In this document: one piece after another, positions 6,679-33,163 of the stretch | How the letters are laid out: each line of letters begins with the position of its first letter | Position numbering within the stretch: position 1 is the stretch's first letter | Position numbers and translations under genes: made by a program | Notes under the pieces: model-generated | What the model was told of the DNA's origin: nothing | The model's database searches: none | The model's input: the letters and a program-made list of their open reading frames with translations, nothing else | Assembly: GCA_002347855.1 (NCBI GenBank) | Contig: DDYE01000009.1 | Location: 90,265-154,264, forward strand | Reading direction: 5' to 3' | Length of the DNA: 64,000 nt | DNA from: Fidelibacterota bacterium UBA2242 | Lineage (GTDB): Bacteria > Fidelibacterota > UBA2242

Positions 6679-7466
6679 ACATAACCAAACCTGACCGACG
6701 ATATAGCTTGATCGCCAGTGAAATGTGGTTTCGTTACCCGTCGAATCCAAAATTTCGCCTGGCGCTTGACAACCTGACGATTGAGTTTACGACCGTCTTA
6801 GGCATATATGGCTTAAGCGGTAGCGGTAAAAGTACACTTGGCAAAATCATTGGTTCGGTGTTGCAACCCACAGCCGGGACCTTCTGTTGCCAGGTGCAAA
6901 ATTGCAGTTCGACGACTTCATCACCGCCCAATTTTAAATATTTGCCACAGGAACCAGAGGAATTGTTCCTGGGCATGAAAATTGGTGAGGCCATTAATAA
7001 ATTACTTATGCCTAAAACAGATTGGTCTTTTCAACAATTCGTGGACTTCCTGAAATATCTCGGACTGCCTTTCGCTCAAGTTGAAAAACGATTTGGCTAT
7101 GAGCTCAGCACCGGGCAGTTACGCAAGGCAGCCCTGGCATTTGGTTTAGCCTTTCCCTGCGATGGGATTGTATTAGACGAACCGACTTTAGGACTAAGCC
7201 CGGCTGTCCGCCTTCAATTTGAAAAATTATTGACCGCGCGACTGACAGAGAAGGCGATTTTTATCATTTCACATGATTTTAACCTTTTAAGGAGCGTCGC
7301 TGAAAAGATAATTGTCATGGAACAGGGACAAGTCGTTTTTCAGGGTGGCGTAGAAGCCTTGCTATCAGATAAGCCGCTGGTCGAACGAGTTGGTATTAGT
7401 AAATTTGCTTTGCTAACTGCAAACAATTTGAAAATAGGGGATCAAATTTATGAGCCGTGCAAGTGA
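6669..7466 (+). CDS. ABC transporter ATP-binding subunit, partner NBD with degenerate signature
   Basis: Walker A is GLSGSGKST, Walker B is IVLDEPT and the H-loop is ISHD. The signature is degenerate (LSTGQ). It has a TTG start overlapping the upstream gene by 10 nt; ATG 6723 is an alternative. Confidence 0.8.
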   Translation: MALNITKPDRRYSLIASEMWFRYPSNPKFRLALDNLTIEFTTVLGIYGLSGSGKSTLGKIIGSVLQPTAGTFCCQVQNCSSTTSSPPNFKYLPQEPEELFLGMKIGEAINKLLMPKTDWSFQQFVDFLKYLGLPFAQVEKRFGYELSTGQLRKAALAFGLAFPCDGIVLDEPTLGLSPAVRLQFEKLLTARLTEKAIFIISHDFNLLRSVAEKIIVMEQGQVVFQGGVEALLSDKPLVERVGISKFALLTANNLKIGDQIYEPCK

Positions 7467-16253: not shown

Positions 16254-16832
16254 TTAACGATATAGCTTATGTTCTGTAATATATTGTGCTATTGCCTGTG
16301 GCACATAGCCTTCCAGTGATTGTCCTTGGCGAACCCTATTCCGAACCAAACTGGACGAAATGGGAGACATTTGATTTTTTAAAACTATAACCTGCTGCAG
16401 GAATTTAGGCTCTACTTTATCTAAATCGCATTCCGGTCGCTTTGCAATCACGACCTGCACAGAATTTAGAATGGCTTCTGGTTCGCGCCAGTTGGCGAAG
16501 TCCAGCAGACTGTCTGCGCCAATCAGGAGATAGTACTCGGCTTGGGGCTCTTGCGCTTTTAGAAAACGGATAGTGTCAATAGTATAGGAGATGCCTTCAC
16601 GCTCAATTTCGACCGTGTTGATACGAAAATGGGGATGTCCCGCGAGAGCAAGGCGCAGCATATTCAAGCGGTCTGCGGCAGTAGCATAAGTACGGTGACC
16701 TTTTTGAGGGGCGATATAGGCGGGAATGAAAAGCACTTCGTCTAATTGCAGCTCTTTCAGAAAAGATGTCGCGATGGTCAGATGTCCGTTATGCGGCGGA
16801 TCGAAGCTGCCACCGAATAAGCCGATTTTCAT
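16254..16832 (-). CDS. nadD: Nicotinate-nucleotide adenylyltransferase
   Basis: The N-terminus is GLFGGSFDPPHNGHL. Its start overlaps the bamD stop as ATGA. Confidence 0.9.
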   Translation of the reverse strand: MKIGLFGGSFDPPHNGHLTIATSFLKELQLDEVLFIPAYIAPQKGHRTYATAADRLNMLRLALAGHPHFRINTVEIEREGISYTIDTIRFLKAQEPQAEYYLLIGADSLLDFANWREPEAILNSVQVVIAKRPECDLDKVEPKFLQQVIVLKNQMSPISSSLVRNRVRQGQSLEGYVPQAIAQYITEHKLYR

Positions 16833-17632
16833 GGATTATTTTTCTTCAACTCTTTTTCGAGTTGCTTTTTTTCGCGATTGTAGGAAAGTTGCAAATACAC
16901 CATTTGTTCGGCAGGGATACGCTCTTTGTACTTGCTGTTGAGAATCTGGCGCACCTGTTCGTATTCATCGAAGCGCCGCAAGCGGATAAGGCAATAGGCT
17001 TTTTCCAGATAGGCTGGCAGGACCCAATCGGTGTCGTAATAGAGTTCAAGAACTTTATCGAAGTAAATGATGGCTGACTCCCACTCGCGCAGTTTGCGGT
17101 AGAGTCGTCCGCTTTCGAAAAGTTTTCGTCCTAAACGATTGCGGATTTCGATAATCATTTTTTCAGCAGCAGGACGATATTTGCTATTGGAATAAGTTTC
17201 AACAAAATCCTGAAAACTCTGCAAAGCCTTCAAGGTATATTCCTGGTCAAGTTGATATTGAGGCGCATTTTTAAATTGCGAGAGCGCGATTTTGTAACTG
17301 GCATCTTCGACTAGCGAGCTATACGGATAGCGCTCCGTCAATTTCTGATACTCGGCAATGGCTAAAAGATACTCTTTGCGATTGAAATAACATTCACCAA
17401 TATAAAATTGGGCATCATCGGCTAAATCACTGCCTGGATTATTGAGCACGACCAGAGTGAAATATTCAATGGCTTTGTCCCATTTTTTCTTATTGAAAGC
17501 CTCGGTTCCCTTTTGATAGGTTTTATTGAAATCAGTCACAATTTTCGGCTGATTGCTCGAACAGCTCGTCATTATCAATATCAGATAAATTAGACTCGTC
17601 AGGCTAATTTTTTCCAGAAGACTATTTTTCAT
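16829..17632 (-). CDS. bamD: Outer membrane protein assembly factor BamD-like TPR lipoprotein
   Basis: It has a lipoprotein signal (LILIMTSCSS) and YfiO/BamD-like TPRs (DDAQFYIGECYFNRKEY..AIAEYQKL). Confidence 0.8.
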   Translation of the reverse strand: MKNSLLEKISLTSLIYLILIMTSCSSNQPKIVTDFNKTYQKGTEAFNKKKWDKAIEYFTLVVLNNPGSDLADDAQFYIGECYFNRKEYLLAIAEYQKLTERYPYSSLVEDASYKIALSQFKNAPQYQLDQEYTLKALQSFQDFVETYSNSKYRPAAEKMIIEIRNRLGRKLFESGRLYRKLREWESAIIYFDKVLELYYDTDWVLPAYLEKAYCLIRLRRFDEYEQVRQILNSKYKERIPAEQMVYLQLSYNREKKQLEKELKKNNP

Positions 17633-17673: not shown

Positions 17674-18585
17674 CTAAAACGAGAGGGAGACATTAATTCC
17701 CCGAATTGGATAGCGATAACGGTAATCGGCGACTAAGTCTAATGACCAGCTGACAGACTTGCTTTCCGGTGGACGATAATGTTTGGCAGCAATCTGAGCA
17801 TGAAAGGCGCTAATAAGATGGTTAAACATGATTACCGTAGCGAAATTGGTCGCCATTTTCAATGCCTGATTCGATTTGTAGCGGTCATTGAGATATTTAT
17901 TGCGTTCAGGGCTATTCTTGACCGGTTCAATCTGGGTAGTATCTACATAATCAGTGGAAAAATCATCCCAGCCAGTCGCAAATTGGTCATACTTGCCGAT
18001 ATTTTCATAAAAATCGCGCGTACGTATCGGGCGCAAGGTCTGCTGTTCAAAGGGTAAATCCTTTTCGTTGGCGAGAATGCTTGCCCAGGTAGGTATGTAA
18101 AGGTTAAGGGTATCCTCATGAGCAGGATATTCCATCCCATTATATTCAATCCAGATGGAATGGGAACCAAAGCCTTTGCGCGTCAAGCCAAATAAATCTG
18201 GATAAGTCAAGCTATTAGCGTACCAGTTCCACAAACTCCAATGATTATTGGCAAAGTGCTTATAACTTTTTTCGATTTTATTACCGGTACTTTTTTGATT
18301 GAAGTAAACAGCCCATGAGATAGCCTCGACGCTGGCAAAAGCAATGGCGCGATAGCGGGCGCCAGCATAAAATTCACCTGCACCTGGAATCGCTGCCGAT
18401 AGCAAAAAGGCTACGCCCGGTGATTTGGCATAATTGAATTCGAAAGTATCAGATTGCACTTGGGCATAACGCAAATTATAGAGTAAGCGTTCCCGTGTAG
18501 TGGCATCGTCCTTGTCCCAGCCACCGAGTTGTTGCGAAAATGCTAAGTAAGGGATGAAAATCGCGAATAATAAACGTGATTTCAT
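17674..18585 (-). CDS. Secreted protein, DUF5683-like (SAxIPGAGEFY motif)
   Basis: A signal peptide starts at MKSRLLFAIF. A strong SD (AAGGAGG) lies 5 nt upstream of ATG 18585 and overlaps the stop of the upstream gene. The protein ends in F. The DUF assignment is from memory. Confidence 0.4.
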   Translation of the reverse strand: MKSRLLFAIFIPYLAFSQQLGGWDKDDATTRERLLYNLRYAQVQSDTFEFNYAKSPGVAFLLSAAIPGAGEFYAGARYRAIAFASVEAISWAVYFNQKSTGNKIEKSYKHFANNHWSLWNWYANSLTYPDLFGLTRKGFGSHSIWIEYNGMEYPAHEDTLNLYIPTWASILANEKDLPFEQQTLRPIRTRDFYENIGKYDQFATGWDDFSTDYVDTTQIEPVKNSPERNKYLNDRYKSNQALKMATNFATVIMFNHLISAFHAQIAAKHYRPPESKSVSWSLDLVADYRYRYPIRGINVSLSF

Positions 18586-18595
18586 AGCGCCTCCT

Positions 18596-21500
18596 TTATA
18601 GTCCAAATAAAATAGTTAAATAAGTCTGCCATTCTTTGCCGTAGCGATGAGCTTTTCCCTGGCGGTCTGTCAGATCGAACTGATCGAGACCATAGACAAA
18701 ATCCCAGCTGATAGCGGTTGGGTAAGCATAGAAGGAAAAGCCACTCAGGCGGAGCTGCACGCCGGCATCGCGTTTAAAATCACCTACTATCCGGCGGGTT
18801 ATTTTTAATGGATTTGTACTGATATCGCTCAACTGCACTTTTGGATACCCTCTAACTCCATTCCAGGCGTTTCCGGCTTCAATATAAAAACCAAGGAAGG
18901 CATTTTGCAAATTAAAAGATAACAAGGGAAAAGATTTTTCTCGAAAAAGCGGCACCCGCCAGGTATATTGTCCTATCAAGAGGTTGCGCCCTTCGATGCT
19001 ATAATAGGGATAGCCTTTTAATCCATCCAGCCCACCGGCAAAGAAGTAGAAAAAGGAATCAACATCCGGTTTGGAAATAAAGCCCCATCGCCAATGCAAA
19101 TTGCCCGTCAAATTCTTTATCAAAGGATATTTGTGGTACCAATCGCCAGTTTGTTCAATACGCCAGTAGTAGTTTTTACGAAAGTCCACATTGAGTGTGC
19201 TGTAGGCTTGGTTGGTACTAAAGCCGCGAATGAATTGGTCATAATTGCGGGCAACGAGCGTATTGACGACAATGCCGTTGTCGGGATTGGTTTCGGCATT
19301 GATACTTGGCAGAGTGGTATTGTGCTGCCATAGCATCTTAAAATTCAGTCCCCGATAGTAGTCGTAAGAAAAGCCATTCTGGTAAATAGCCTGAGAGGGA
19401 ATGCGTTCGTTGGTTGAGGTCCTATATTTAGCGAAAGAAACATCAAAACGAAGGCGATTGACGCCCGACACTGGCAGCGCCATTCCCAAATCAGCTTCGC
19501 TCAGATAATAGGTGTAATCCAGTTCAGCAGGGTAACTATTAATCGTTTCTTTTATATTCTTGATATGCCGACTAAGGTTATAAAGTTCGATGTAGAAAGT
19601 CGGATACCACTGGCGATATTCGAGAATAGTGAACAAGTCGCGGTCAAAGTATTGATTGACGGCGGCACCGCCGAAAATATTAAAGCGGTTGAGAATTTCT
19701 GAAGAATAAAAGTAGAACCCCGGTTTGGCTTTTTTATAATCCCACATTAGGCGCGGCAGGAAAAAAAGACGGGCAAACTGCTCCTTATAAGGTTCAGCCT
19801 GTGTCACAGTGACTTCGGGCGCAGGTAGGAGCCCGGGATTAGTCGCAGGTTGGCGATTGTAAGTGGCATTCTGTAAGTCGAGAGATTGTGGGTTTTTTAT
19901 CAAGCTGATTTTGAAAGCAGTGTCGTCAAAAAGCACATAGGCTAATTCGCCCGCGCTATTGACAGCCGGCATAAAAGCCCCGCCGAGGACATTGGTCACT
20001 AATTCTTTTTCGCCAGAAATCAGGTTCAGGCGATAGAGATTAAAAATGCCAGTCTCATCGGAAGAATAGTAGAGCCACTTGCCGTCGGGACTGAAGAAGG
20101 GATGGCGCGTATCGCAATCACTCTCATTCCGATAGATGATTGAGTCGCAACTCAGGTCATAAAGCGCTAAATTGCGTCCGTGACTGACTAAGTAATCGAA
20201 GGCAATTAAGCGTCCATCAGGTGACCAGCTGGCAGTAAAGACTTGGGTACCGTCGGTAAAATGAGTGAGATTGCGCTTGCTTTTATTTTCTAAGTTATAC
20301 ATCACCAGATTGGAAGTGCCATCGCGTCCCGTGATGTAAACTAATTCCTTTCCATTGGGTGCCAGGGCAGGGTTATATGCTCTGGCTTCTTTTGTCAAAC
20401 GTTCTTCTTTTCGGCGCCGCAAATCGTAGCGATAGAGGTCATAAAAAATTGAACCACGGCGATTAGGACGACTGGGACGGGAGTAGTAAATATAACGACC
20501 ATCGGGAGAAAGCGAAAGGCTGGAATTGACCCGCGCCACGAGGCGTTTAGTTTTGCCGCTGCGCCGGTCAAAACGAAAAAGCGCCGTCTGTGAAAAGTAG
20601 TCACGCCCTTCGTTGGATACATAATAAAGGCAGCTATCACCACTCCAGGTAGGATAAAACTGAGTGCTGCCTTTTTGCAGTAACACTTCGCCAGCGAAAA
20701 CGTGAGGCTTTATAAAACGAGTGAGCTCGGCATAATGCTTATCAAGATACTGCCCCCACTCTTGATAAAGCAGGTCGCCCGGAGAAGCCGTGGCGCCTTT
20801 CATTGCCGAGCTCACTGAATATTGGTTTGGTTTTGCAAGCTCTGCCGCCAGTTTTGAAAGAACATCAGTACCAAATCTGTTACTAATATAATATACAAAA
20901 GAAAAACCTAAATTGTAAACACTTTCGTTACCAATTCCTCTTTTTCCGAATGATCCCATCTCGGAAAAGGTCAATAATTTTTTATGCAAAACCCGATCAC
21001 GCAACAACATATCGCGGTGCGAGTCCCAGTAATCGTTGGGATTGCCAGGATACATATACTGCGCCATGCCTTCTGCCAACCACATCGGAATAACTAAACC
21101 CGGAACCGGGTAGGAACAAATAATTCTCGGATAACCGTAAATTACATCCTGTCGCTTTTCTTTTTCGTAATCAATCATTTGCAGGTAAAAGCCGGGGATT
21201 GCGCGCCCAAACTTCATGGCTTTCTGCAAGGAAACGATATGGGTAAACTCGTGGGTGATGACATCTCTTAGCCAGCTGTGACTGCCGCGCATCGGGAAAT
21301 CAAGAGGCGTTGCCCAGATTTCGATTTTGTTGTCATAGTAGTAAGCCGCTCCGTTAGAGATGTCGTCCGTATCTTTAATAATGAGCGCGGTTTTTTCGCG
21401 CGGCGCAAAATTATAAAAATTGGTAACCGGTCCATAAATAGCTTCGGCAATGCGGGCGCTTTCATAAGCCGTCCATTCCGTGCCTTCATGATAATGCACT

Positions 21501-21634
21501 TTGAAATGCGCAGTTTCAAAGGTCAACCATTTCAGCTCGGGATGATTGAATTCACTAAATTGGGCAAAAGCCCCCTGAAAGATACCTAACAGCAACCAGC
21601 AGAATAAAAAAAATTTATGCGGCGTAATAAACAT
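18596..21634 (-). CDS. Secreted zinc-metallopeptidase-like (HEFTH) protein fused to TolB/PD40-like beta-propeller repeats
   Basis: The HExxH motif is at nt 21239–21253, with a downstream Glu-rich MA-clan-like region. There are multiple SPDG(R/K)..Y PD40-like repeats. The start is taken at the Met that gives a signal peptide (MFITPHKFFLFCWLLLGIFQGAFA), whose ATG overlaps the upstream stop as TAATG. The 6-frame ORF runs to 21739. Confidence 0.6.
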   Translation of the reverse strand: MFITPHKFFLFCWLLLGIFQGAFAQFSEFNHPELKWLTFETAHFKVHYHEGTEWTAYESARIAEAIYGPVTNFYNFAPREKTALIIKDTDDISNGAAYYYDNKIEIWATPLDFPMRGSHSWLRDVITHEFTHIVSLQKAMKFGRAIPGFYLQMIDYEKEKRQDVIYGYPRIICSYPVPGLVIPMWLAEGMAQYMYPGNPNDYWDSHRDMLLRDRVLHKKLLTFSEMGSFGKRGIGNESVYNLGFSFVYYISNRFGTDVLSKLAAELAKPNQYSVSSAMKGATASPGDLLYQEWGQYLDKHYAELTRFIKPHVFAGEVLLQKGSTQFYPTWSGDSCLYYVSNEGRDYFSQTALFRFDRRSGKTKRLVARVNSSLSLSPDGRYIYYSRPSRPNRRGSIFYDLYRYDLRRRKEERLTKEARAYNPALAPNGKELVYITGRDGTSNLVMYNLENKSKRNLTHFTDGTQVFTASWSPDGRLIAFDYLVSHGRNLALYDLSCDSIIYRNESDCDTRHPFFSPDGKWLYYSSDETGIFNLYRLNLISGEKELVTNVLGGAFMPAVNSAGELAYVLFDDTAFKISLIKNPQSLDLQNATYNRQPATNPGLLPAPEVTVTQAEPYKEQFARLFFLPRLMWDYKKAKPGFYFYSSEILNRFNIFGGAAVNQYFDRDLFTILEYRQWYPTFYIELYNLSRHIKNIKETINSYPAELDYTYYLSEADLGMALPVSGVNRLRFDVSFAKYRTSTNERIPSQAIYQNGFSYDYYRGLNFKMLWQHNTTLPSINAETNPDNGIVVNTLVARNYDQFIRGFSTNQAYSTLNVDFRKNYYWRIEQTGDWYHKYPLIKNLTGNLHWRWGFISKPDVDSFFYFFAGGLDGLKGYPYYSIEGRNLLIGQYTWRVPLFREKSFPLLSFNLQNAFLGFYIEAGNAWNGVRGYPKVQLSDISTNPLKITRRIVGDFKRDAGVQLRLSGFSFYAYPTAISWDFVYGLDQFDLTDRQGKAHRYGKEWQTYLTILFGL

Positions 21635-24600
21635 TATTTGATGACGATAATTTTGATGATTTTTATGTCGGTCTGCGCTCCAACACTGGCTTTGACCACA
21701 GCGAAATAGACCCCGCTCTTTATCTCTCCGACATACCATTCTTTTTCGTTGAAATCACCACTGCGGGGATGATTGTCTTCGAAAGAAGTGATTAAGTCGC
21801 CGGCTAAGTCGTAAATATCGATGTTGATTTTGCACGAAGAATTAACAAAGTAACGAATAAAAGTACGATTATCGCGAGCCGGATTGGGCCAGTTAAAAGT
21901 CAATTCATGATTGAGCAAGCCCTTGGCATTTTTACCCGAGGTGATTGGTAAAACAGGATAAAAGTAGCGCCGGCTGGCATTGCCTCCCTGACAAACCCAG
22001 TCCGTGCTTGTCAGTGCCGCCGCCGCTAAGAGCGCGCCACCAATCTGGCGATAATCAGACTGCCCGATTGGCTGAGTGGCGCCCAGCAAAAGCTGTCCAC
22101 CGGCTGAATTGATTAAAATTCCCGAACCAGCACGCGGCTGGACAAAATTCAGGGGGAAATTAGCAATTAGTCTGCCCTGCTTGTTGAAAGCAACAACGCC
22201 CCTTTGGGTTGTCAGCAAAACGTCCTTGATGCCATCACCGTCAAGGTCGCTTAAACAAAGGTTGCTACTGAATTCGTCGCCTTTTAAAATGTTGGGCAAG
22301 CTAATCGGGAAATTGTATTTGAACTTTAAATCCTGGTTAAAAGCGTAAACCGCATTGGCGTCGTAGGCGATAATTTCGTTTTTACCATCACCGTCAATAT
22401 CCGCACAGGCTAAGTCACCGCTTAGAACGATATTCCGGGTGATGGTTTTTTGACTTTCATCAATGTCAAAAATTATTTCTAAATGTCCATTATAGTAATG
22501 AATTATATCAGGAAGCTCATTGCCGTCAATAAATGCCAGTAAATGTTCACCCTGACCGAGATTTGCCGATTGCCCCAGGGAAGTAATGCCGAAGGGCTGC
22601 GGCTGAATTCTAAGCAGCTCATTGGCGTCGGTGATGCCGTATAAAAAGGTAGAATCACCTAAAAAACGTGCGATAGGAGCAGACAAATACACCGATTGGA
22701 CGGAGGAGGATTGCGGCAAGTAATAGCCCAATTCGTATTGCTTGACATCCGTTGCCAGAACACAATATATGATGCCCTTGCCAATGGGAAGTGGTTGACC
22801 ATACAGGTTTTTTTTCTGCCAATTGGTCTGTGCTAAAACCTGCCATTTGCCGTTGGAATCAATCTGCCAGGTGGTAATAGTGAGGTCATCGCCCGGTTGC
22901 GGTTGGAAGCCGGTGATTTGAGAGCCATTAATGGCATAAGTCGTGTTGGCGACGGCGGTGGAAAGCAAATACCCTTCGTCATTGAATATATAAGCGCTAT
23001 CAGCGCAAACTAAAAAAGCGTCGGGAATCCTATTCATATTTAGGGAAAGTGGTAAAAGATGCGTGATAGTAGTCGGGAAATTGAGAGGAAAATTTTCCGG
23101 TGTAGTTGCTCGCCTGATCTGAAAATACATGACCATACCTGCCGGACCAATACTGTCAATGCTGACCCCGGTGTAAAGATAGGCGTTGGTAGTTGTAGCG
23201 GGATTAGTGAAAGGAGTGAAGCCCACATGTTGCGCGGCGTCGCGCGGATAATCAGGATTCAAGTGGAAAAAGCCTTCATTACCGGCAAACCACGGGTCGA
23301 AATACCAACCAATGTTGATATTTGCTCCTAAGATACCGGTGTCGTAACCTAAATCCTGTGCGCCATCACCTTCTTCGAGATCAACACCGCGGTAGTTGCG
23401 GTTGATATTGACTTGGTTCTTGGCGAGATTGCTTTGGATAATTGATTCGTCAATGTGCCAGATGAGGAGACCGGAACCGGGCAATCCGTAATCATATTTG
23501 GGAACACTAAGCATAACCCCTGTTTGGGGAGAAAAGACTGCTCGCAGGGAGTCACGCAGAAGCGGAAAAAGGGATGGCCAGGTTTGACTGGGGCTTTGTA
23601 GATAAAGCCGATATTGAATGCTATCTAAACTAACACCAGGTCGCACATGCGCACAGCGATTTTCGATTAAAAAGTATTCAGAAGCATTTAAAGTCACTTT
23701 CCAAATAGTAGTATCGGAACCGGATTCGATTTCAGGCAGGTGAATTGTAGCGCTATTCGGTGACTCGATTGGTTCTTCCCATCCCATGAAAAAGCGTTCC
23801 CAGGCAGATGGTACCGCGGGCACCAAGCCATTGAGGTTGGCTGAGCCCTGGTCCATGAGCCCAAATTTCCCAATACCGGTTGTGCCAGTCTGGGTATCGT
23901 AAAGAGCTGGTAATCCCAAATAAAACCCGAAAATAAAGGCGAAGGTACCATTTAACCCAATCTGGTATTCGCAAGGTGTTGCTGCTGAACCAAAAACTTC
24001 CTGCCAATTGTCAAAAAGCAGATGATTTTGCGTTTCCGGCAAAATTAGACCACGGTCGAGATGATAATTACCTTTTTCGACCGCAATACCGAAAAAATCA
24101 GGATCATCCGGAGCCAGCAGGTTTTTCAAGTCAGTGCGGTTAATGAAAACCGAGGGAATATCATAAGGCGTTGGATCGAGAAAAAGGTCGAAGTCCTGCC
24201 CGACCCCCGCGTGAAAAACGACCACTACATCATATTGACGGAAATCTACTTCAGAATCAGCAGCTTGGATAGCATCATAAAATAGCTCCGCTAAGCGTAA
24301 ATCAATCGAGTCTTTCTGTAAAAAAGGATGATAATAAGCCATCCGGTGCGGCACGGTATAGGTCGAATCGTCTTGTATGGGAAAAACCTGCGAATTAACT
24401 GTGTCAATGGTTACTTTGCCATGGGAAACTTTGGAATAGTAATTGTTTAACGCGCGCAAATGGTCAATGAAATAGGCGCGATTATGGGGCGGTGGATCAA
24501 TTACAAAATCAGAACAGGGTGTATTCGTGTCATTTAGAAATTGACCATTGCCAGTTGTTCCAGGGTCTGCATCGCTCGGAAAGCTGACTCGTAATGCGCA

Positions 24601-24738
24601 GATTTTCAAATTTGTAGTAGTAGTGACACTCGCACGGCTCTTTTTATGATAAAAGTTGGGTTTTATAGATTCGGCGCCCTGCGTAAGAGTCGCCAGAAAA
24701 GTCAGAACACTAATGAAGATTAAGGAGGATTTTGGCAT
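21634..24738 (-). CDS. T9SS C-terminal sorting domain cargo protein with FG-GAP/VCBS-like repeats and N-terminal peptidase-like domain
   Basis: The C-terminal ~88 aa (NWPNPARDNRTFIRYF..IDIYDLAGDLITSF..SGVYFAVVKA..KIIKIIVIK) match the Por secretion tail pattern. FG-GAP-like motifs are present (DIDGDGKNEII, DLDGDGIKDVLL). The start is taken at ATG 24738, which gives the signal peptide MPKSSLIFISVLTFLATLTQGA; the ORF extends to TTG 24777. Confidence 0.7.
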   Translation of the reverse strand: MPKSSLIFISVLTFLATLTQGAESIKPNFYHKKSRASVTTTTNLKICALRVSFPSDADPGTTGNGQFLNDTNTPCSDFVIDPPPHNRAYFIDHLRALNNYYSKVSHGKVTIDTVNSQVFPIQDDSTYTVPHRMAYYHPFLQKDSIDLRLAELFYDAIQAADSEVDFRQYDVVVVFHAGVGQDFDLFLDPTPYDIPSVFINRTDLKNLLAPDDPDFFGIAVEKGNYHLDRGLILPETQNHLLFDNWQEVFGSAATPCEYQIGLNGTFAFIFGFYLGLPALYDTQTGTTGIGKFGLMDQGSANLNGLVPAVPSAWERFFMGWEEPIESPNSATIHLPEIESGSDTTIWKVTLNASEYFLIENRCAHVRPGVSLDSIQYRLYLQSPSQTWPSLFPLLRDSLRAVFSPQTGVMLSVPKYDYGLPGSGLLIWHIDESIIQSNLAKNQVNINRNYRGVDLEEGDGAQDLGYDTGILGANINIGWYFDPWFAGNEGFFHLNPDYPRDAAQHVGFTPFTNPATTTNAYLYTGVSIDSIGPAGMVMYFQIRRATTPENFPLNFPTTITHLLPLSLNMNRIPDAFLVCADSAYIFNDEGYLLSTAVANTTYAINGSQITGFQPQPGDDLTITTWQIDSNGKWQVLAQTNWQKKNLYGQPLPIGKGIIYCVLATDVKQYELGYYLPQSSSVQSVYLSAPIARFLGDSTFLYGITDANELLRIQPQPFGITSLGQSANLGQGEHLLAFIDGNELPDIIHYYNGHLEIIFDIDESQKTITRNIVLSGDLACADIDGDGKNEIIAYDANAVYAFNQDLKFKYNFPISLPNILKGDEFSSNLCLSDLDGDGIKDVLLTTQRGVVAFNKQGRLIANFPLNFVQPRAGSGILINSAGGQLLLGATQPIGQSDYRQIGGALLAAAALTSTDWVCQGGNASRRYFYPVLPITSGKNAKGLLNHELTFNWPNPARDNRTFIRYFVNSSCKINIDIYDLAGDLITSFEDNHPRSGDFNEKEWYVGEIKSGVYFAVVKASVGAQTDIKIIKIIVIK

Positions 24739-24790
24739 CAGATCTTTTTTGATTTGAGGTATCGTTAGAGTGGTCAAACTCAGAGCATTA

Positions 24791-26014
24791 TCAGAATTTT
24801 ATATTAAGGGAAAACAACATAGTATTCTGCCGCGGGTGACCGGCTTCGCCTGCAGTGTAGCCGAAATCGAAGCCCAAGCCTGCCCAGCGTAAACCGGCTC
24901 CAAAAGTCGGCACCGGAAGATTATTTTTCATGACAATCTTCCCGATTTTGTCATAGATACATCCCACCCGAATGGCAAACAGGTCGGAATACCAGTATTC
25001 GATGCCAAAATTGTGTACTAATTTCTCGAATTCTCTTTTCAGAGAGCCGTCGTTGGTATTGCCGTCCTCATCGTTAGCACCTATGCCATCCGAAGCGGAA
25101 TCGTAGGTCAATAGCCAATCATCAATCCACGAAGTGAAGATGCCTTTGTACCAGTCATCAGAATAAGCCGTTTCGCGTTGTCCTTTTTTATTGTAATCGC
25201 CGCCGGCTATGCGATGACCATCGGCATCATAGCCGCCCACTTTGCCATCGCCGTCAATATCACGGTCAGGGTAAGAAGCCACGAGGAGTTTATTGACGTC
25301 GTAGGCAATGGTCACGCGGTTATATTCGCCGCCTAAGGTATAGCTGAGACCAAACTTAAGATTAGTTGGCATGGGGTCAGCCTGCGAAACATCGATAAAG
25401 GCGATTTTCGGTCCGATATTAGCAATCGTGGCGCCCATAGTCAAATTTCTTAACAGGAATTGCTTCTTTAGATAGCCGACATCAAAGCAAAAGTTGGTCG
25501 AAGTTCCCTTCCCTTTTTCATGACCGGCGCCGCGGTCGGTAAGATGTTGGTGAACCATTTTGACATTGACGCCTAAGGATGAATTGCGGGTCAGAGCTGT
25601 CCCATAGGATGCTGTTACCGCCATCATATAAGAGCTAAAATCTCCTAAATAATTGCCGCGCTCATCCATACGAGCTTGTTCTCCCAGGTTCATCAAAATG
25701 ATATTGCCACCCAAAGTCCCGACGTCTTTTAAAAATTGCCGATAGCTCACGAATTCGTAGTACATATCGGAAGCCAGATTTGGTAACCAGTTGGTATGCG
25801 TCAAACCGGCTTCGCGTCCCCGCAGGAAACCCAAGCCAGCTGGATTATAGTAGGTAGCGTAGGCGTCGTCGGTAAAACCGGCACCGGCTTCGCCCATACC
25901 GCAGTACCGTGCCCCGGGATTGATTAAAAGCCAGACCGCACCAGCCTCACTCTGGGAGTAAGCCATCAAAGTCATACTCAATATTAAAAGCGATATGCTC
26001 AAAAATCTATGCAT
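24791..26014 (-). CDS. PorV/PorQ/PorP-superfamily (FadL-like) outer-membrane beta-barrel
   Basis: It has a signal peptide, GARYCGMGEAGAG and YYNPAGLG motifs like T9SS shuttle proteins, and a C-terminal Phe (NIKF). A strong SD (AGGAGG) precedes the ATG. Confidence 0.55.
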   Translation of the reverse strand: MHRFLSISLLILSMTLMAYSQSEAGAVWLLINPGARYCGMGEAGAGFTDDAYATYYNPAGLGFLRGREAGLTHTNWLPNLASDMYYEFVSYRQFLKDVGTLGGNIILMNLGEQARMDERGNYLGDFSSYMMAVTASYGTALTRNSSLGVNVKMVHQHLTDRGAGHEKGKGTSTNFCFDVGYLKKQFLLRNLTMGATIANIGPKIAFIDVSQADPMPTNLKFGLSYTLGGEYNRVTIAYDVNKLLVASYPDRDIDGDGKVGGYDADGHRIAGGDYNKKGQRETAYSDDWYKGIFTSWIDDWLLTYDSASDGIGANDEDGNTNDGSLKREFEKLVHNFGIEYWYSDLFAIRVGCIYDKIGKIVMKNNLPVPTFGAGLRWAGLGFDFGYTAGEAGHPRQNTMLFSLNIKF

Positions 26015-26155
26015 CTATTCCTCCTGACAAACGAATAATATATTGCTCTCTAAATATACGCAAACGTTGATATATGTAGTACTATTGAAAAAAGATAGGT
26101 TGTAACAATTAGAAGATTGTCGGTCCCCCTGTGCTTATATGGTAAAAACAGGCGC

Positions 26156-26320
26156 TCAAAATTTCTGTGCCTCCTCGACAAGCATGATGGGAATATCGTC
26201 TTCGATTGCATATATTAATCGGCAATTCGAGCAGATTAATTTCTGATTTTCGGCGTCGTAGGTCAGTTCGCCTTTACATTGTGGACAGACTAAGATTTCG
26301 AGTAGGTCTTGACTTAACAT
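26156..26320 (-). CDS. Trm112/UPF0434 family small zinc-ribbon protein (54 aa)
   Basis: It is not in the ORF track because it is under 60 aa. I translated it as MLSQDLLEILVCPQCKGELTYDAENQKLICSNCRLIYAIEDDIPIMLVEEAQKF, which is a classic Trm112 sequence (LLEILVCP.CKG.L, C.NC...Y.I.DGIP.ML). Confidence 0.75.
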   Translation of the reverse strand: MLSQDLLEILVCPQCKGELTYDAENQKLICSNCRLIYAIEDDIPIMLVEEAQKF

Positions 26321-28174: not shown

Positions 28175-28615
28175 CTATTCCTCCAGAGCCTGAATTTTCT
28201 TAATCCGTCTGAGATGACGTTCTTCACCTGAAAAAGAGGTAGTGAGCCATAATTGGAGATATTCTTTGGCTTTTTCTGGTAAAATAAAATCGGCACCGAA
28301 ACAGAGCACATTTGAATCATTATGCTGACGACTTAAAGTGACGACCTGGGGATTGTAGGCAATTGCTGCCCGGACGCCATGTATTTTATTGGCCGATATG
28401 CACATTCCGATGCCAGTGCGGCAAATCAGGACTCCATAATCGGCAGTTCGGGACTGAATAGCAGTACCTACAGCTTGGGCGAAGTCTGGATAATCAACCG
28501 GGTTATCTGAATCGGTGCCTGCATCCAGGACGGTATGCCCGAGCTGCTGGGCAAATGCGCTAAGCTGCTTTTTCAGGTTCACACCACCGTGATCAGCACC
28601 AAAAATGATACGCAT
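28175..28615 (-). CDS. rpiB: Ribose-5-phosphate isomerase B
   Basis: The N-terminus is MRIIFGADHGG, it is RpiB/LacAB sized, and the stop abuts the glyA start. Confidence 0.9.
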   Translation of the reverse strand: MRIIFGADHGGVNLKKQLSAFAQQLGHTVLDAGTDSDNPVDYPDFAQAVGTAIQSRTADYGVLICRTGIGMCISANKIHGVRAAIAYNPQVVTLSRQHNDSNVLCFGADFILPEKAKEYLQLWLTTSFSGEERHLRRIKKIQALEE

Positions 28616-29892
28616 TAATCCTTCTTTGCTTCGGTAGTTATCCAGTTATAGCAGGCTTTATTGGGACGAAAACTTGTGCGACGATTGCCCAGGGCGTCGA
28701 AATTATTGAAAAACCATTCTTCGGTGGTCGGGATGAGGTAGTCTTTCAAATGGTCGATACGATTTTTTACTGAACTATCGCCTAATTCAAGGGCTTTCTT
28801 ATAGTCGTCATAAGCTAATTTATAAACTAATTTGTCTTCGAAAGTCATTTTCTCCGAGCCGATACAATAGTCAGCGGCAGTATAATAGAGATCAGCCCGA
28901 ATTTTATAGGCTTGAGCGCCACCAATGCTAACGGCTTTTTCTGCCCAGGAATAAGCAGCCGGGAAATTGGCGAGTCTGATGTAATTGGTGCAGATTTTCT
29001 GGATGACATCTAAATCACGTGGTGCCAGGTTTTTAGCAATGAATTCCAGGGCATTGATTGCCTCCGGAATGCTGTTCTTATTCTGGTAAAGATCAGCAAG
29101 ATTTTGCCAGGCTTCGAGGTTACGCGAATCGATTTGCGTAACTTTTTGATAAACCTGGATAGCGCGTTCAAAGTCGCGTGCTTGCTTCAAGGCAGTAGCA
29201 TATTCTAAGCCGGAGCGCACGGAAGGCGATTTTTCCCAGTTATCCCGAATAATCTGAATCGGGTCCTTGCCTAATTTCTGATAGGCTAAAATCAGGTCGT
29301 TTTTCGCCTGCTCATCATTCGGACTGATTTTTAAAATTTCGTTGGAGATGTAGACTACATCATTCCAACGCTGATTGGAAAAATACAATTTAGCCAGAGT
29401 GCGATAAAGCTCTATATCATTGGGATTGAGCTCAATCATTTTTTCATATTCGCGAATTTCCAGGTCAATTTTGTTCTGCAAGTGGTATATGTAAGCGATG
29501 TATTTTTTTAAGTACAGATCATTAGGAAGATATTTTTCTCCCTTTAAATAGACAAATAAGGCGCTATCTAAATAAACAGGGTTCTCGGATGCCAACTGTT
29601 GATAGGCTCTACCCCAATAGATGAAAATATCCTGGGCATATTCCTCTTCGCAACCATGATCTATCATTTTTCGATAATTTTCGATGGCGCTCTTCCAGTT
29701 CTGGTTCTGATAATAGCTGTAAGCAAAACTAAGGTAGAGATCGCACTTGGTGTGATCCATAGGTGGTTTAGGGGCAGCTGGAGCGGTTTTTTCGACTGGT
29801 TCCGGCGATGGCGGAACGCAACCGACTAAACCTAAACCCGTTACTAATAAGAGGATAATTAAAAAGTTAAAAACAATCCGACTTTTCATCAA
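28615..29892 (-). CDS. TPR-repeat lipoprotein
   Basis: It has a lipobox (LVGC) and multiple TPR-like repeats. Its stop overlaps the rpiB start. Confidence 0.6.
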   Translation of the reverse strand: MMKSRIVFNFLIILLLVTGLGLVGCVPPSPEPVEKTAPAAPKPPMDHTKCDLYLSFAYSYYQNQNWKSAIENYRKMIDHGCEEEYAQDIFIYWGRAYQQLASENPVYLDSALFVYLKGEKYLPNDLYLKKYIAYIYHLQNKIDLEIREYEKMIELNPNDIELYRTLAKLYFSNQRWNDVVYISNEILKISPNDEQAKNDLILAYQKLGKDPIQIIRDNWEKSPSVRSGLEYATALKQARDFERAIQVYQKVTQIDSRNLEAWQNLADLYQNKNSIPEAINALEFIAKNLAPRDLDVIQKICTNYIRLANFPAAYSWAEKAVSIGGAQAYKIRADLYYTAADYCIGSEKMTFEDKLVYKLAYDDYKKALELGDSSVKNRIDHLKDYLIPTTEEWFFNNFDALGNRRTSFRPNKACYNWITTEAKKD

Positions 29893-29905: not shown

Positions 29906-31114
29906 TTAGCGTCGTTTATATTTCAAAAACCATAGTTCACCTGTCGTTAACCCGCACGACAAGGTAAAGAATTTTTCATTACTTAAAAAGCCCTTGCGCA
30001 ACCCATAAGTTAAGGCAAAATCAATGCGATTCAAATCATTAAAAATTGGCAACCCGATTCCCGCCGTCAAACCCCTTTCGCTTATCTGAGTACCCGCCCA
30101 ATAGACTGGTTCTGTACGATAATAAAGACCGAAGCGATAGGCAAAGCGGCTGATTTCAGGATGTTTTTCGTCAATAACGGGAGTTAATTCAATGCCGACT
30201 CCAATATACTGAGCATTTTGCCATTTAACAGGAGTGAAGAGGTAGAAATCTTGGAAAACTGAGTGATCGGTGTAGGTATAATGCCACTCGAGATTCAACC
30301 GCAAGAAATTAGAGAACTTATTGGTCAGAGCCAGGCGCAGAGTGCCGGGATAGGCGAGTGGCCGGGATGGAGCGGTGGTATCGGGACCATAAGAATAGTC
30401 AATGCTTTTTTGGTAAGAAAATTTTAGATTTTTATCAAAAGTGAATGCCATAGTAAGATGGGTTCGCGGTACATTCCACAGGCTGCCGACTTCTAATGAA
30501 GTGCCCTTTACAACCGAGTTCATCTGCCAGTAGCTATAGACCTTGTTGGTGCCACTTAAGGTCGTATTGTAATTGACGACATAATTGCCCAAAAGGAAGC
30601 GCGCTTTTGCTCCCAAGTTTAGATAAGGTGATAAGCGAAAGCCTCCGCCCAGAAAAAATTCCGAAATGCCACCTGTTAGGAGCAAATCAGATTGACTGCT
30701 GATTTTAATGCCATCAAAAAGCAAGGTATCTATAAAAGTGCGATTAGCGTCCATCCGCGTAACGGGATTTAATCCCAAGCCAATGCCGATCTTTTTACCA
30801 ATCGGGAACTTGAAGGCAAAACCAACGAAACGCCCGAAGTTAGTAGTGTAATCGAGGTTGGGAACGGCAATGTTAGAGAAGTACATTTGCCCCTGCAGCG
30901 AGGTGCTCACAAAATTAGTCCAGAGAGCAGGATTGACGCTATTGAGACTGATGGAATCAGGAAGAGCAGCACCGGTCAAACCCAGACCAAGCGAACGCAC
31001 TGGCTGAACCGGAGACGCAATACCGAAGCCGTACATCGAATAATGCGAAAACTGACCTAATGCCGGTAAAGCAATTAAGCCAATGGCGGTGACTATGGCA
31101 AATATTCGTTTCAT
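29906..31114 (-). CDS. Outer-membrane beta-barrel, second PorV/FadL-like paralog
   Basis: It has a signal peptide (ALPALGQ) and an N-terminal VRSLGLGLTGAAL...NPALW motif like the 24791–26014 protein, with an alternating β-strand pattern. Confidence 0.45.
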   Translation of the reverse strand: MKRIFAIVTAIGLIALPALGQFSHYSMYGFGIASPVQPVRSLGLGLTGAALPDSISLNSVNPALWTNFVSTSLQGQMYFSNIAVPNLDYTTNFGRFVGFAFKFPIGKKIGIGLGLNPVTRMDANRTFIDTLLFDGIKISSQSDLLLTGGISEFFLGGGFRLSPYLNLGAKARFLLGNYVVNYNTTLSGTNKVYSYWQMNSVVKGTSLEVGSLWNVPRTHLTMAFTFDKNLKFSYQKSIDYSYGPDTTAPSRPLAYPGTLRLALTNKFSNFLRLNLEWHYTYTDHSVFQDFYLFTPVKWQNAQYIGVGIELTPVIDEKHPEISRFAYRFGLYYRTEPVYWAGTQISERGLTAGIGLPIFNDLNRIDFALTYGLRKGFLSNEKFFTLSCGLTTGELWFLKYKRR

Positions 31115-32352
31115 CGTTCTTTCATTAAAAATAGTTTGAGATAAGGCTGCCTGGCGGAATCTGCTGTAGTATAAAGGCTATAGAGAATGGGATTGTAAGA
31201 TGATGGCGCTAACCAGATTACAAAACCGAAATTTTTAGAATAACCACTGGTAATATTCTGAATTGTCCTCGGCAAATTCATTTTTAATATTTGACTACCT
31301 GCTGTAAGAGTGTGGCTCGCCTCATAGGTGCTTGGGGTAGTAAAATCAGAGGCGTTCCAGGCGGTCGAATCCAACATGTTCAGGTAAACCGTAATACTTT
31401 TATTGTAAGACATAGATAAAGAAGAGTCAATATAGAGATACAAATTAGCATCGCCGACGACCCAGTTTTTATCAATATTTAACTCATCGAGATTAACTTT
31501 CAGGAAAGCGTAGCCTGTTAAACCTGCCGAAAGTACCAGTCGCTGATTGTTAATTTTGGCTGAGTTGTATTTCAAGATTGCGACATCGTTGGTTGCCGCG
31601 ATAGTCCGCGTGAGAGTGTCGCCCTGGTAAATGTACTGAACAATGAGAGTGGGAGCGTAAACGGTACTGCGGGTATAGATACAACCGATGGCGGTTTCGG
31701 TCTGATTAGCAGTCTGGAGAATCAACCCGTAATTAGTTTTGCTCGTATCCAGCCAGTCATTAATCATTGCTTTGGCAAAATTAGTGATGTCGAGCTGGAC
31801 GGTATCTGATATTTGGAAATCGAATTCTGTAAAAGGTGTTACCCGGTATGAGGTTAAATCGAAATTCTTATCGGAAACACTATCTTCTTCCCAATTGGGT
31901 GCTGCATTAGATTGGAGCAGTCCAATTTTTATAGTTGGATTTAGCACCTGGTTGGTGTCGGTTGCTAAACTGGTGGCAGTATAAAGATTCAAGGTACAAC
32001 TCAGGAGGGTGTCGAGAGTGTCAGGCAGTAGACTAAGATTGGAAAAGCGCAATAAAGAATAAGCGGTCACCCACTCGTTTTGTCCAACATAAAGATAGAA
32101 GTAGCTGCCTAATTTGCCGGGGACAATTAAATTGCGGGTCTGAATCAGACTTGCCGGTACGACTAGAGTATCAAAATATGCCAGAGGCTGGTCGTACGGA
32201 AGTGTCGGTAATTTTTCCTCACAACCGCTGCTAATTATCAGCATTAGTCCCACCACGATAAATATTAAAAGGTGGTGTGGTGGGTTAGAAGTTGCCTGCG
32301 CGAGTTGGTTAAAGCGAGCTTTACATGCGTTCCATGAGTGCGATAATTTCAT
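31111..32352 (-). CDS. Lipoprotein of unknown function (DUF4270-like)
   Basis: The lipobox is ISSGC. Its size and its position next to a short glycogen-synthase-like gene match the conserved Bacteroidota pair (from memory). It overlaps the downstream gene by 4 nt. Confidence 0.4.
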   Translation of the reverse strand: MKLSHSWNACKARFNQLAQATSNPPHHLLIFIVVGLMLIISSGCEEKLPTLPYDQPLAYFDTLVVPASLIQTRNLIVPGKLGSYFYLYVGQNEWVTAYSLLRFSNLSLLPDTLDTLLSCTLNLYTATSLATDTNQVLNPTIKIGLLQSNAAPNWEEDSVSDKNFDLTSYRVTPFTEFDFQISDTVQLDITNFAKAMINDWLDTSKTNYGLILQTANQTETAIGCIYTRSTVYAPTLIVQYIYQGDTLTRTIAATNDVAILKYNSAKINNQRLVLSAGLTGYAFLKVNLDELNIDKNWVVGDANLYLYIDSSLSMSYNKSITVYLNMLDSTAWNASDFTTPSTYEASHTLTAGSQILKMNLPRTIQNITSGYSKNFGFVIWLAPSSYNPILYSLYTTADSARQPYLKLFLMKER

Positions 32353-33163
32353 CTGCTAATTTCTGCCAATCTTCTGGTTCATTACCGGTTAAGTTATAAA
32401 TCGAATATTTTTTCTTGTCTCGTTTTAAAATTTCAGTGAAGTGAGCATCTTGCTGAAAGGCATCCCATATATTTTCTTTATGATTAATAAATAGAGTGTG
32501 ATGGCAGAAAGGTAGCGCTGCCGCCAGGCAATCAATCGTCTCATTAGTAGAAGCAGGGTTCAAATTGTTAATTCCAATAGCTTCATATTCTGAGCGACGG
32601 TACAAAGCATGCTCTGATTTGGAATGCACAATCTGTAGGATTTTGACTCCATCTAAATAATCAGGATTGAGTTGCCCGGAGTTAATCAGGAGAGGAATCA
32701 GACTCATCTGCCAGTCGTTACAGATAATGACTTCTGGTTTCCAGCGTAAATAATTGAGGGTGACCAATGCGGCGGTAGCAAAATATCCGAAGCGAGAAGC
32801 ATTATTTTGCTCAGCATTGGAAGGCTCATTGTAGTAGAGGTTATTATCGGGCAAGTTGAAATAGAGATTATGCTCTAAGAAATAGACCTGCACCTTAGTA
32901 TTGGGGATAAAGGCGGATTTAACTGCGGCTTTCACCGGTTGATTTTTGTACAACAAATCCATTTCGCGCAGGCGGATGACTTCGCGCAAAATATAGCGCC
33001 GCTCGCTGATGAAATTGTACTTGGGCATCATCAAGCGGAAGTCATATTTACGCTCATTAAAGATGATGGAAATTTCTTTGGAGAAGGTCGCAAGAGAATA
33101 AGTCTCAGCAAAGGGTACGATTTCAGAGGTGAGAAAATAGATTCTTTTTATCATAGTAGTCAT
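32321..33163 (-). CDS. Truncated glycogen/starch synthase-like protein (GT5 N-domain only, degenerate KTGGL)
   Basis: Its N-terminus IYFLTSEIVPFAETYSLATF corresponds to GlgA's FV.SE..PFAKTGGLADV, with KTGGL changed to ETYSL. It is about 280 aa and lacks the C-terminal GT-B half. Its ATG overlaps the upstream TGA as ATGA. Confidence 0.55.
   Translation of the reverse strand: MTTMIKRIYFLTSEIVPFAETYSLATFSKEISIIFNERKYDFRLMMPKYNFISERRYILREVIRLREMDLLYKNQPVKAAVKSAFIPNTKVQVYFLEHNLYFNLPDNNLYYNEPSNAEQNNASRFGYFATAALVTLNYLRWKPEVIICNDWQMSLIPLLINSGQLNPDYLDGVKILQIVHSKSEHALYRRSEYEAIGINNLNPASTNETIDCLAAALPFCHHTLFINHKENIWDAFQQDAHFTEILKRDKKKYSIYNLTGNEPEDWQKLADEIIALMERM

Follow-up and report, generated by a model that had tools for sequence, protein, structure and literature searches.

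A PorV gene in a conserved block with a predicted M6-like pseudo-protease and two further envelope genes in a Fidelibacterota contig

We have analysed a gene block that belongs in part to a type IX secretion system (T9SS), found in a stretch of 64,000 nt (hereafter the window) from contig DDYE01000009.1 of Fidelibacterota bacterium UBA2242. On the minus strand, between 16.2 and 26.0 kb, the window contains six tightly packed genes, namely porV, which encodes an outer-membrane barrel, a gene for a protein that carries a T9SS C-terminal sorting domain (CTD) and is called M6i here, two genes referred to as gene 3 and gene 4, bamD and nadD. The barrel looks like the ordinary PorV of its lineage and not like a private paralogue. 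With moderate confidence, we explain the locus as an ordinary Marinimicrobia porV with three old companion genes, in which M6i would act as a non-catalytic partner of PorV.

The locus and its gene products

The features discussed below are the following, with positions in the window.

24791-26014, minus strand: porV, outer-membrane barrel of 407 aa, PorV/PorQ family, assigned by profile scores and an end-to-end PorV alignment
21634-24738, minus strand (including the stop codon, 21634-21636): M6i, 1,034-aa protein with a T9SS type-A CTD, family NF052323
24667-24738, minus strand: signal peptide of M6i, MPKSSLIFISVLTFLATLTQGAES, read from the sequence; an N-terminal helix and disordered linker in the AlphaFold2 model
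23104-24621, minus strand: M6 (immune inhibitor A)-like domain at residues 40-545 of M6i, by prediction without catalytic activity
23923-23937, minus strand: degenerate zinc site FIFGF of M6i, in place of the HExxH of M6 enzymes and followed by a retained GLPxLYD
21919-23091, minus strand: beta-propeller at residues ~550-940 of M6i, holding two DxDGDG calcium motifs of the FG-GAP type
21637-21906, minus strand: type-A T9SS CTD of M6i, residues 945-1034, with the motifs NWPNP, SGVYFAVVKA and KIIKIIVIK
18596-21634, minus strand: gene 3, 1,012 aa, signal peptide, HExxH peptidase-MA-like domain, TolB-like propeller, Omp85-type barrel
21239-21253, minus strand: intact zinc-binding motif HEFTH of gene 3, an HExxH that is invariant in the orthologues
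17674-18585, minus strand: gene 4, 303 aa, signal peptide, DUF5683-like hairpin motif SAAIPGAGEFY
16829-17632, minus strand: bamD, 151 bits on TIGR03302 (cutoff 81)

Independent gene calls on four metagenome contigs with identical proteins, one of them a 1.35-Mb contig of the Joint Genome Institute (JGI), give products of 407, 1,034, 1,012 and 303 aa, and all start M6i at the same ATG, 24738, 52 nt after the end of porV. An alternative upstream TTG at 24777 would extend the protein to 1,047 aa and leave a gap of 14 nt. The first-pass annotation of this DNA had described a PorV-like barrel followed 14 nt later by a 1,034-aa CTD protein. Both open reading frames (ORFs) are indeed present on the minus strand, but the 14-nt gap belongs to the TTG start, while the quoted 1,034 aa goes with the ATG and the 52-nt gap. 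Further downstream, the stop codon of M6i and the ATG of gene 3 overlap as TAATG at 21634, gene 3 and gene 4 are 10 nt apart, gene 4 and bamD 41 nt, and bamD and nadD overlap by 4 nt. The layout of an operon that runs into bamD was thus described correctly, except that genes 3 and 4 sit between the CTD protein and bamD. porV, probably the first gene of its transcription unit, has a strong Shine-Dalgarno sequence (AGGAGG) and encodes a signal peptide. A scan of 16.0-26.5 kb for promoters and terminators gave no outstanding site, the counts being near those of shuffled controls (23 promoter-like sites versus 18.9 ± 4.3, and 17 terminator-like sites versus 11.4 ± 3.4). For M6i and gene 3 alike, the nearest homologues with a named source come from Candidatus Marinimicrobia (Neomarinimicrobiota / Fidelibacterota), and the lineage of the window was assigned from these names.

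With NF033709, the PorV/PorQ family of NCBIfam, the barrel obtains 239.7 bits (cutoff 90), and with the Pfam PorV family PF19572 79.5 (cutoff 27), which confirms its annotation as PorV/PorQ-like. On the PorV equivalog NF033710, it reaches 178.4 bits, below the cutoff of 250, with the match falling into two stretches that are split by an acidic loop insertion. Of the specific models, PorV nevertheless ranks far above PorQ (68) and PorV2 (42); the last value is to be compared with a cutoff of 325, and membership of the PorV2/PorU2 system was rejected on this ground. The sole sequence match in the PDB is the PorV of Flavobacterium johnsoniae (6H3I_F, residues 8-407, E 1e-21). As the two proteins align end to end, the barrel is not FadL/OmpP1-like, which was the alternative named in the first-pass annotation. 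Syntenic PorV orthologues from four loci (L027, L048, L085 and L086) exceed the equivalog cutoff, at 259-271 bits. The acidic insertion itself lies at 25030-25270 on the minus strand (PorV residues ~248-330), is rich in Asp and Gly, and reads DRDIDGDGKVGGYDADG...NDEDGNTNDG; a comparable acidic stretch occurs in F. johnsoniae PorV.

We now turn to M6i. NCBI curates NF052323 as an equivalog with the name 'T9SS-dependent M6-like inactivated metalloprotease', and M6i matches this model over positions 3-1043 of 1043 with 545.2 bits (E 3e-163), which is below the cutoff of 600. The AlphaFold2 model, built with 54 homologues, has a mean predicted local distance difference test (pLDDT) score of 86.6 and a predicted template modelling (pTM) score of 0.81. 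It consists of an alpha/beta domain (40-545), an all-beta propeller (~550-940) and a beta-sandwich CTD (945-1034), the last with seven strands over residues 948-1032 and pLDDT above 90. The CTD scores 32.4 on TIGR04183 (cutoff 23) and 27.4 on PF18962 (cutoff 27), both over the last ~80 aa (residues 963-1042 of the 1,047-aa ORF), and FG-GAP_3 gives 29.6 (cutoff 26.9), with the DxDGDG motifs at residues 780 and 831. Both the sorting domain and the FG-GAP/VCBS-like calcium repeats that had been read from the sequence earlier are therefore borne out. The CTD motifs PNP, GVYF and the terminal K..K..V.K are kept across phyla, and the middle propeller region is poorly conserved. A family-specific CTD hidden Markov model run over all ORFs of the window found no match besides M6i.

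A search of the PDB with the single M6i sequence gave no match. With the family profile, the only significant sequence match is the CTD of Porphyromonas gingivalis PorU (6ZA2_A, E 3.6e-5), and Foldseek places PorZ (5M11, propellers plus CTD) at rank 3 with E 3e-11. We take the likenesses to the PorZ fold and the PorU CTD to be generic, and treat them as hints only.

The N-terminal half of M6i is an immune-inhibitor-A (M6) metalloprotease fold in which HExxH has become FIFGF. M6 enzymes read HExxHxxGLPDLYD at the zinc site, and M6i reads FIFGFYLGLPALYD at this position. It follows that the caspase/C25-like fold suggested previously on the basis of a VVVVFHAG strand is wrong: the strand is a standard M6 motif, and no C25 match is found in Pfam or NCBIfam. 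The observation that the protein lacks HExxH was accurate, as the motif occurs nowhere in M6i. With this lack and a TIGR03296 score of 75 against a cutoff of 110.8, the assignment of M6i as an active M6 (InhA) metallopeptidase was rejected. Compared to Bacillus InhA (MEROPS M6), M6i has FIFGF for HExxH, a beta-propeller in place of the C-terminal domains of InhA, and a CTD through which it would be exported by the T9SS.

In the AlphaFold2 model of gene 3 (pLDDT 86.1, pTM 0.85), a helical/beta domain like peptidase MA (~30-305) is followed by a TolB-like propeller with six blades (~315-580) and by an Omp85-type barrel of ~16 strands (~624-1012); a test for a 16-strand Omp85-type barrel was positive. 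The protein is strongly conserved, with a mean column identity of 52%, and its HExxH is present in 66 of 66 syntenic orthologues, with H128, E129 and H132 invariant in the alignment (A3). Most homologues match Peptidase_MA_2 and some match the Pfam family Omp85 (PF01103). For the window protein, the Peptidase_MA_2 match has E 2e-4 and is below the cutoff, and the precomputed matches are Tricorn_N, Tricorn_2nd, DPPIV_N and PD40. There is no NCBIfam family that matches gene 3, and no POTRA match in Pfam or NCBIfam; residues 30-580 are modelled instead as the HExxH alpha/beta domain and the propeller. Judging from the model, gene 3 is an Omp85-superfamily protein that differs from BamA, TamA, Sam50 and FhaC in that the POTRA domains are replaced by a predicted metallopeptidase domain and a TolB-like propeller, which by analogy would face the periplasm.

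In gene 4, the hairpin motif is accompanied by a second motif, YYENIGKYDQF..GWDD (conserved as YYExIGKYDQF..GWDD), and by a C-terminal aromatic residue. The match to Pfam DUF5683 is weak (E 0.053), and it is likewise weak or faint for the orthologues of Kryptonia and Ignavibacteria.

Conservation across lineages and the M6 active site

When an alignment of M6i was scanned against one genome per species, relatives turned up in at least 574 of these genomes; in a library of representatives at 50% identity, there are 637 relatives at E <= 1e-30. We kept 79 loci, from Marinimicrobia, KSB1, Calditrichaceae and metagenome-assembled genomes (MAGs) labelled Cytophagia or Bacteroidota, and compared them by tblastn with the window proteins. 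A PorV-family gene lies directly upstream of M6i on the same strand at all 78 loci that have upstream DNA, so the pair is conserved across related MAGs, as the first-pass annotation had proposed to check. No locus has a second PorV-family match within 10 kb. Gene 3 follows M6i wherever there is real downstream DNA, with the exception of one Bacteroidota MAG (L069), the other apparent misses being contigs that end within or just past M6i. Gene 4 is present at 52 of the 53 loci with enough downstream DNA. Taken by lineage, the order porV-M6i-gene 3-gene 4 is shared by Marinimicrobia, KSB1, Calditrichaceae, Kryptonia and Ignavibacteria, and the adjacency of porV and M6i extends to at least six phylum-level lineages. 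bamD follows gene 4 in the Marinimicrobia loci only, and not in KSB1, Calditrichaceae, Kryptonia or Ignavibacteria.

The loci in which porU accompanies the pair are arranged as follows.

KSB1 single-cell genome (L020): porZ, TolB-like gene, porU, porV, M6i, gene 3, gene 4
Ca. Chrysopegis kryptomonas, Kryptonia (L085): porU, porV, M6i, gene 3, gene 4
Ignavibacteriaceae contig (L086): porU, porV, M6i, gene 3, gene 4
Bacteroidota MAG (L069): porU, porV, M6i
Zixibacteria (L088): porU, porV, M6 homologue, then the contig ends

In the KSB1 genome, the scores are 277 for porZ (cutoff 260), 863 for porU (cutoff 420) and 246 for porV (cutoff 250). The PorV proteins of Kryptonia and Ignavibacteriaceae, at 268 and 259 bits, are both over the NF033710 cutoff. 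The window does not contain porU. In KSB1, Kryptonia, Ignavibacteriaceae, Zixibacteria and the Bacteroidota MAG, the orthologous porV has porU as its immediate upstream neighbour. The adjacency of porU and porV is the canonical arrangement, which is also seen at a Flavobacterium locus (L087) and in Cytophaga hutchinsonii (PMC8564354). Since porU precedes the very same pair in sister phyla, we regard the barrel as an ordinary PorV orthologue. The Flavobacterium locus and a Lewinellaceae locus (L089) have porU-porV without M6i, gene 3 and gene 4. The C. hutchinsonii gene chu_3239, a 'zinc protease' downstream of porV, was considered as a counterpart of M6i and rejected because it is too small.

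The NF052323 scores of M6i are 668 for L027, 607 for L048, 1,014 for L085, 1,060 for L086 and 401 for L028. With these values, the lineages of L085 and L086 are evidently close to the seed of the family. The window protein resembles the members above the cutoff (L027, L048, L085 and L086) in its end-to-end match, its domain order, its loss of HExxH and its neighbours, including the order porV-M6i-gene 3-gene 4, and it differs from them in its score of 545 bits, under 600. On sequence grounds, the Marinimicrobia M6i is a divergent branch of NF052323, and porV and M6i of the window both belong, as divergent members, to families with an existing NCBI curation.

Three of these loci have particularities of their own. 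At L020:1037-4366, porZ (NF052228, 277 bits) and a separate gene for a 341-aa TolB-like propeller lie directly upstream of porU-porV-M6i-gene 3-gene 4, so that four attachment-type genes are clustered at one place. At L088:4555-7134 (Zixibacteria, JGI 3300022540, contig Ga0247425_1002779), the PorV gene product has 859 aa and the barrel is apparently interrupted or extended, with faint Pfam matches to LysM, Reg_prop and beta-propeller families; tblastn with the window PorV gives three pieces over 4630-7131. At L089:10001-19025 (Lewinellaceae, GCA_020636435.1), porV comes after two tandem PorU-like Peptidase_C25 genes of 1,295 and 1,151 aa, with a porP/sprF gene and one that is gldJ-like (FGE-sulfatase) upstream.

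The active site was compared in an alignment of 82 syntenic M6i orthologues, to which the Zixibacteria orthologue does not belong. None of the 82 has HExxH at the homologous position. The commonest reading is (F/L)(A/S)(L/F)M.GF, and three of the 82 keep the second histidine alone. Two KSB1 sequences read HQFGH and HQFAH, that is, both zinc histidines are retained and the catalytic glutamate is changed to glutamine. The Zixibacteria orthologue, which follows porU-porV, reads HEFGHQLGLVDLY, with HEFGH fully intact; this homologue is located at L088:7177-9063, and its contig stops before the C-terminus. Because of the HEFGH of Zixibacteria and the HQFGH of KSB1, the ancestor of M6i was probably once an active protease. 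These sequences are most simply explained if a common ancestor already had, beside porU-porV, the gene of an active M6 protease that carried a CTD, and if catalysis was lost in most descendants. That fold, CTD and genomic position were kept after this loss argues for a conserved non-catalytic role.

Interpretation of the block

According to the explanation that we favour, the three genes would have travelled with porV since before the phyla of the Fibrobacterota-Chlorobiota-Bacteroidota (FCB) group diverged. M6i would be exported by the Sec system, pass through the T9SS translocon driven by its CTD, and then be handed over to PorV, which would receive it as the general shuttle for type-A CTDs. 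The catalytic site would have decayed, as in HEFGH, HQFGH and FIFGF, while the fold, the CTD and the adjacency to porV stayed. The job that M6i retains would then most likely be non-catalytic, that of a binding or scaffolding surface protein, which may work with PorV and with the gene 3 and gene 4 envelope proteins in the way that PorU and PorZ do in the P. gingivalis attachment complex. In that case, M6i would not be simply one exchangeable cargo out of many. PorU and PorZ (PMC8545088, PMC12365241) provide a precedent for CTD proteins that serve as machinery and not as cargo.

A close known counterpart is the porU-porV pair with the PorU/PorV/PorQ/PorZ complex of P. gingivalis and F. johnsoniae. 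There, as here, a PorV gene stands beside that of a protease-fold protein of ~1,000-1,300 aa with a type-A CTD, and the same porV follows porU in the sister phyla. In contrast to that pair, the partner gene here stands downstream of porV, its product has an M6 and not a C25 fold and no catalytic site, and porU is missing from the window.

It is important to point out that several observations weigh against the favoured explanation. PorV and M6i of the window are both under their NCBI equivalog cutoffs (178 versus 250 and 545 versus 600). None of porK-N/gldK-N, sprA/sov, porU and porZ turned up when the window and the ~9 kb past its start were searched, tblastn with PorU gave no match in the window, and porT is likewise absent from the window and its 10-kb flanks. 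The many CTD proteins of SAR406 genomes (PMC5596340) nevertheless speak indirectly for a T9SS in this genome. A search with KSB1 PorU gave no Marinimicrobia-named PorU among the best 120 of 194 matches, a result that is limited by the word index; the same search did recover PorU from KSB1, Kryptonia, Ignavibacteria, Zixibacteria and Bacteroidota. As it is tied to shared words and returned 194 matches in all, it does not establish that PorU is absent from Marinimicrobia. Stable binding of M6i to PorV and retention of the CTD are putative, and an ordinary cargo gene that was inherited within the porV operon would agree with the deep synteny as well. Finally, the T9SS works without M6i, gene 3 and gene 4 in model organisms, since the Flavobacterium and Lewinellaceae loci and C. 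hutchinsonii do not have the block beside porV.

On a more far-reaching reading, the T9SS would have accessory components in M6i, gene 3 and gene 4 that have escaped recognition, and these would form a module for processing or attachment at the outer membrane which goes back to the ancestor of the FCB-group phyla. The block porU-porV-M6-omp85-like-DUF5683-like would then have been lost in the model Bacteroidota (Flavobacterium, Porphyromonas, Cytophaga) and would for this reason never have been studied, and M6i would be a PorV-docked pseudo-protease that was at first an active M6 enzyme. We consider this possible but tentative. The main rival of the favoured explanation, less likely but holding most of the probability that the latter leaves, is that M6i is plain cargo, for example a surface binding protein or adhesin, that has stayed beside porV through inheritance of an old operon, genes 3 and 4 being unrelated envelope proteins that share the transcript. 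The NCBI name 'T9SS-dependent' denotes a substrate, T9SS model organisms have no M6i beside porV, the pair occurs without genes 3 and 4 in the Bacteroidota MAG, and the Marinimicrobia run goes on into the housekeeping genes bamD and nadD, all of which would be expected for cargo. Retention beside machinery genes across phyla is, however, unusual for cargo, and here it extends over at least six lineages and 78 of 78 loci; M6i has, moreover, kept its fold, CTD and position despite the lost catalysis.

The first-pass annotation had called the gene pair unusual and suggested a private shuttle or cargo-specific pair. The barrel would then be a dedicated PorV paralogue which serves the adjacent cargo alone, comparable to PorP/SprF and their type-B CTD cargo. 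The adjacency is indeed strict, for type-B CTDs cognate pairs of a shuttle gene and a cargo gene are known (PMC12618676), and the score of 178 against 250 on the PorV equivalog could reflect a paralogue. As in the F. johnsoniae PorP/SprF systems described in that work, an outer-membrane shuttle gene is linked to the gene of a CTD protein, but those shuttles are cargo-specific and handle type-B CTDs, whereas the shuttle here is PorV, the general one, and the CTD is of type A, the class that it serves. In F. johnsoniae, all type-A CTDs are recognised by PorV (PMC12618676), and SAR406 genomes encode up to ~24 CTD-domain proteins (PMC5596340), which makes a shuttle for one cargo unlikely. The porV-M6i pair follows porU in five other lineages, accompanied by porZ in KSB1, syntenic orthologues of the barrel pass the PorV equivalog cutoff, for the window barrel itself the PorV score is far above those for PorQ and PorV2, and no second PorV-family gene was seen within 10 kb at any locus. 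The locus resembles PorU2/PorV2 (NF052324, NF052325), a putative second sorting system, only in the idea of an extra PorV-like barrel for a subsystem, and with 42 bits against 325 the barrel is not a member. A dedicated paralogue is thus improbable, and the private-shuttle idea should be dropped whether or not M6i, gene 3 and gene 4 take part in the T9SS. We rate as very improbable that M6i or gene 3 replaces PorU or PorZ in CTD removal and attachment in Marinimicrobia, where porU may be missing. There is no porU within 10 kb at any Marinimicrobia locus, nor in the window, and none with a Marinimicrobia name among the best 120 PorU matches; the propeller and CTD of M6i are PorZ-like in Foldseek (5M11), the PorU CTD is the best PDB sequence match of the family profile, and the HExxH of gene 3 is intact. 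On the other hand, KSB1, Kryptonia and Ignavibacteria have bona fide PorU in addition to M6i and gene 3, and KSB1 has PorZ too. Moreover, a catalytic site is lacking in M6i, the likenesses in propeller and CTD are generic, and the word index set a limit to the search for PorU. As a general model, M6i as a PorU/PorZ substitute was rejected, since all of them coexist in KSB1.

Much literature still places the T9SS in Bacteroidota only, and nearly all mechanistic work on it comes from Porphyromonas and Flavobacterium. In the abundant uncultured marine Marinimicrobia/SAR406 and several sister phyla, porV stands in a fixed block with three envelope genes that are foreign to these model organisms. 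If M6i, gene 3 and gene 4 act in secretion or attachment, the textbook parts list would be incomplete for most lineages that use the T9SS, and the series HEFGH, HQFGH and FIFGF would be a clear case in which an enzyme became a structural partner. Should they take no part, the locus is a well-annotated PorV with a curated cargo family. Beyond the existing annotation, the analysis adds a cross-phylum block of four to five genes and the series from active to dead protease. Literature searches on PorV2/PorU2 and on the T9SS in Marinimicrobia or Marinisomatota found essentially nothing relevant, and no paper on the porV-M6i-gene 3-gene 4 block was found. This may be explained by the fact that the organisms used to dissect the T9SS do not have the block.

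Surroundings of the block

The neighbourhood in the window is one of envelope and housekeeping genes: nrdR, glyA, rpiB, a BamG-like gene, mreBCD-pbp2-rodA, purHN, tamB with a bamA-like gene, and clpB. In the interval between nrdR and porV, at ~26100-26270 on the minus strand, there is an ORF for a 54-aa Trm112p-like zinc-ribbon protein, which is called as a gene on four of four matching contigs. Between it and the Shine-Dalgarno sequence of porV lie ~140 nt of AT-rich intergenic DNA. In most Marinimicrobia loci (within L011-L079, at ~4.7-8.4 kb), a tripartite ATP-independent periplasmic (TRAP) transporter, with DctP and a fused DctQM, and a 298-aa gene are located between glyA and porV; the window's own clade has nrdR and the small zinc-ribbon gene in place of this region.

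The window is rich in genes for outer-membrane biogenesis, namely bamD, the BamG-like gene, gene 3, and the TamB-like and BamA/TamL-like genes. The BamG-like protein (29906-31114, minus strand) has 165 bits on NF053685, below the cutoff of 250, and is flanked by DNRLRE-domain and TPR proteins (31111-32352 and 28615-29892, both minus strand), an arrangement that is found upstream of glyA in many Marinimicrobia loci too. At 44188-49952 on the plus strand, the TamB-like gene of 1,307 aa overlaps the 614-aa BamA/TamL-like Omp85 gene, which scores 291 on TIGR03303, just under the cutoff of 297, and is followed by clpB. A 280-aa ORF at 32321-33163 on the minus strand matches only the N-terminal ~220 residues of the glycogen/starch synthase GlgA, and may be a truncated or domain-only gene.

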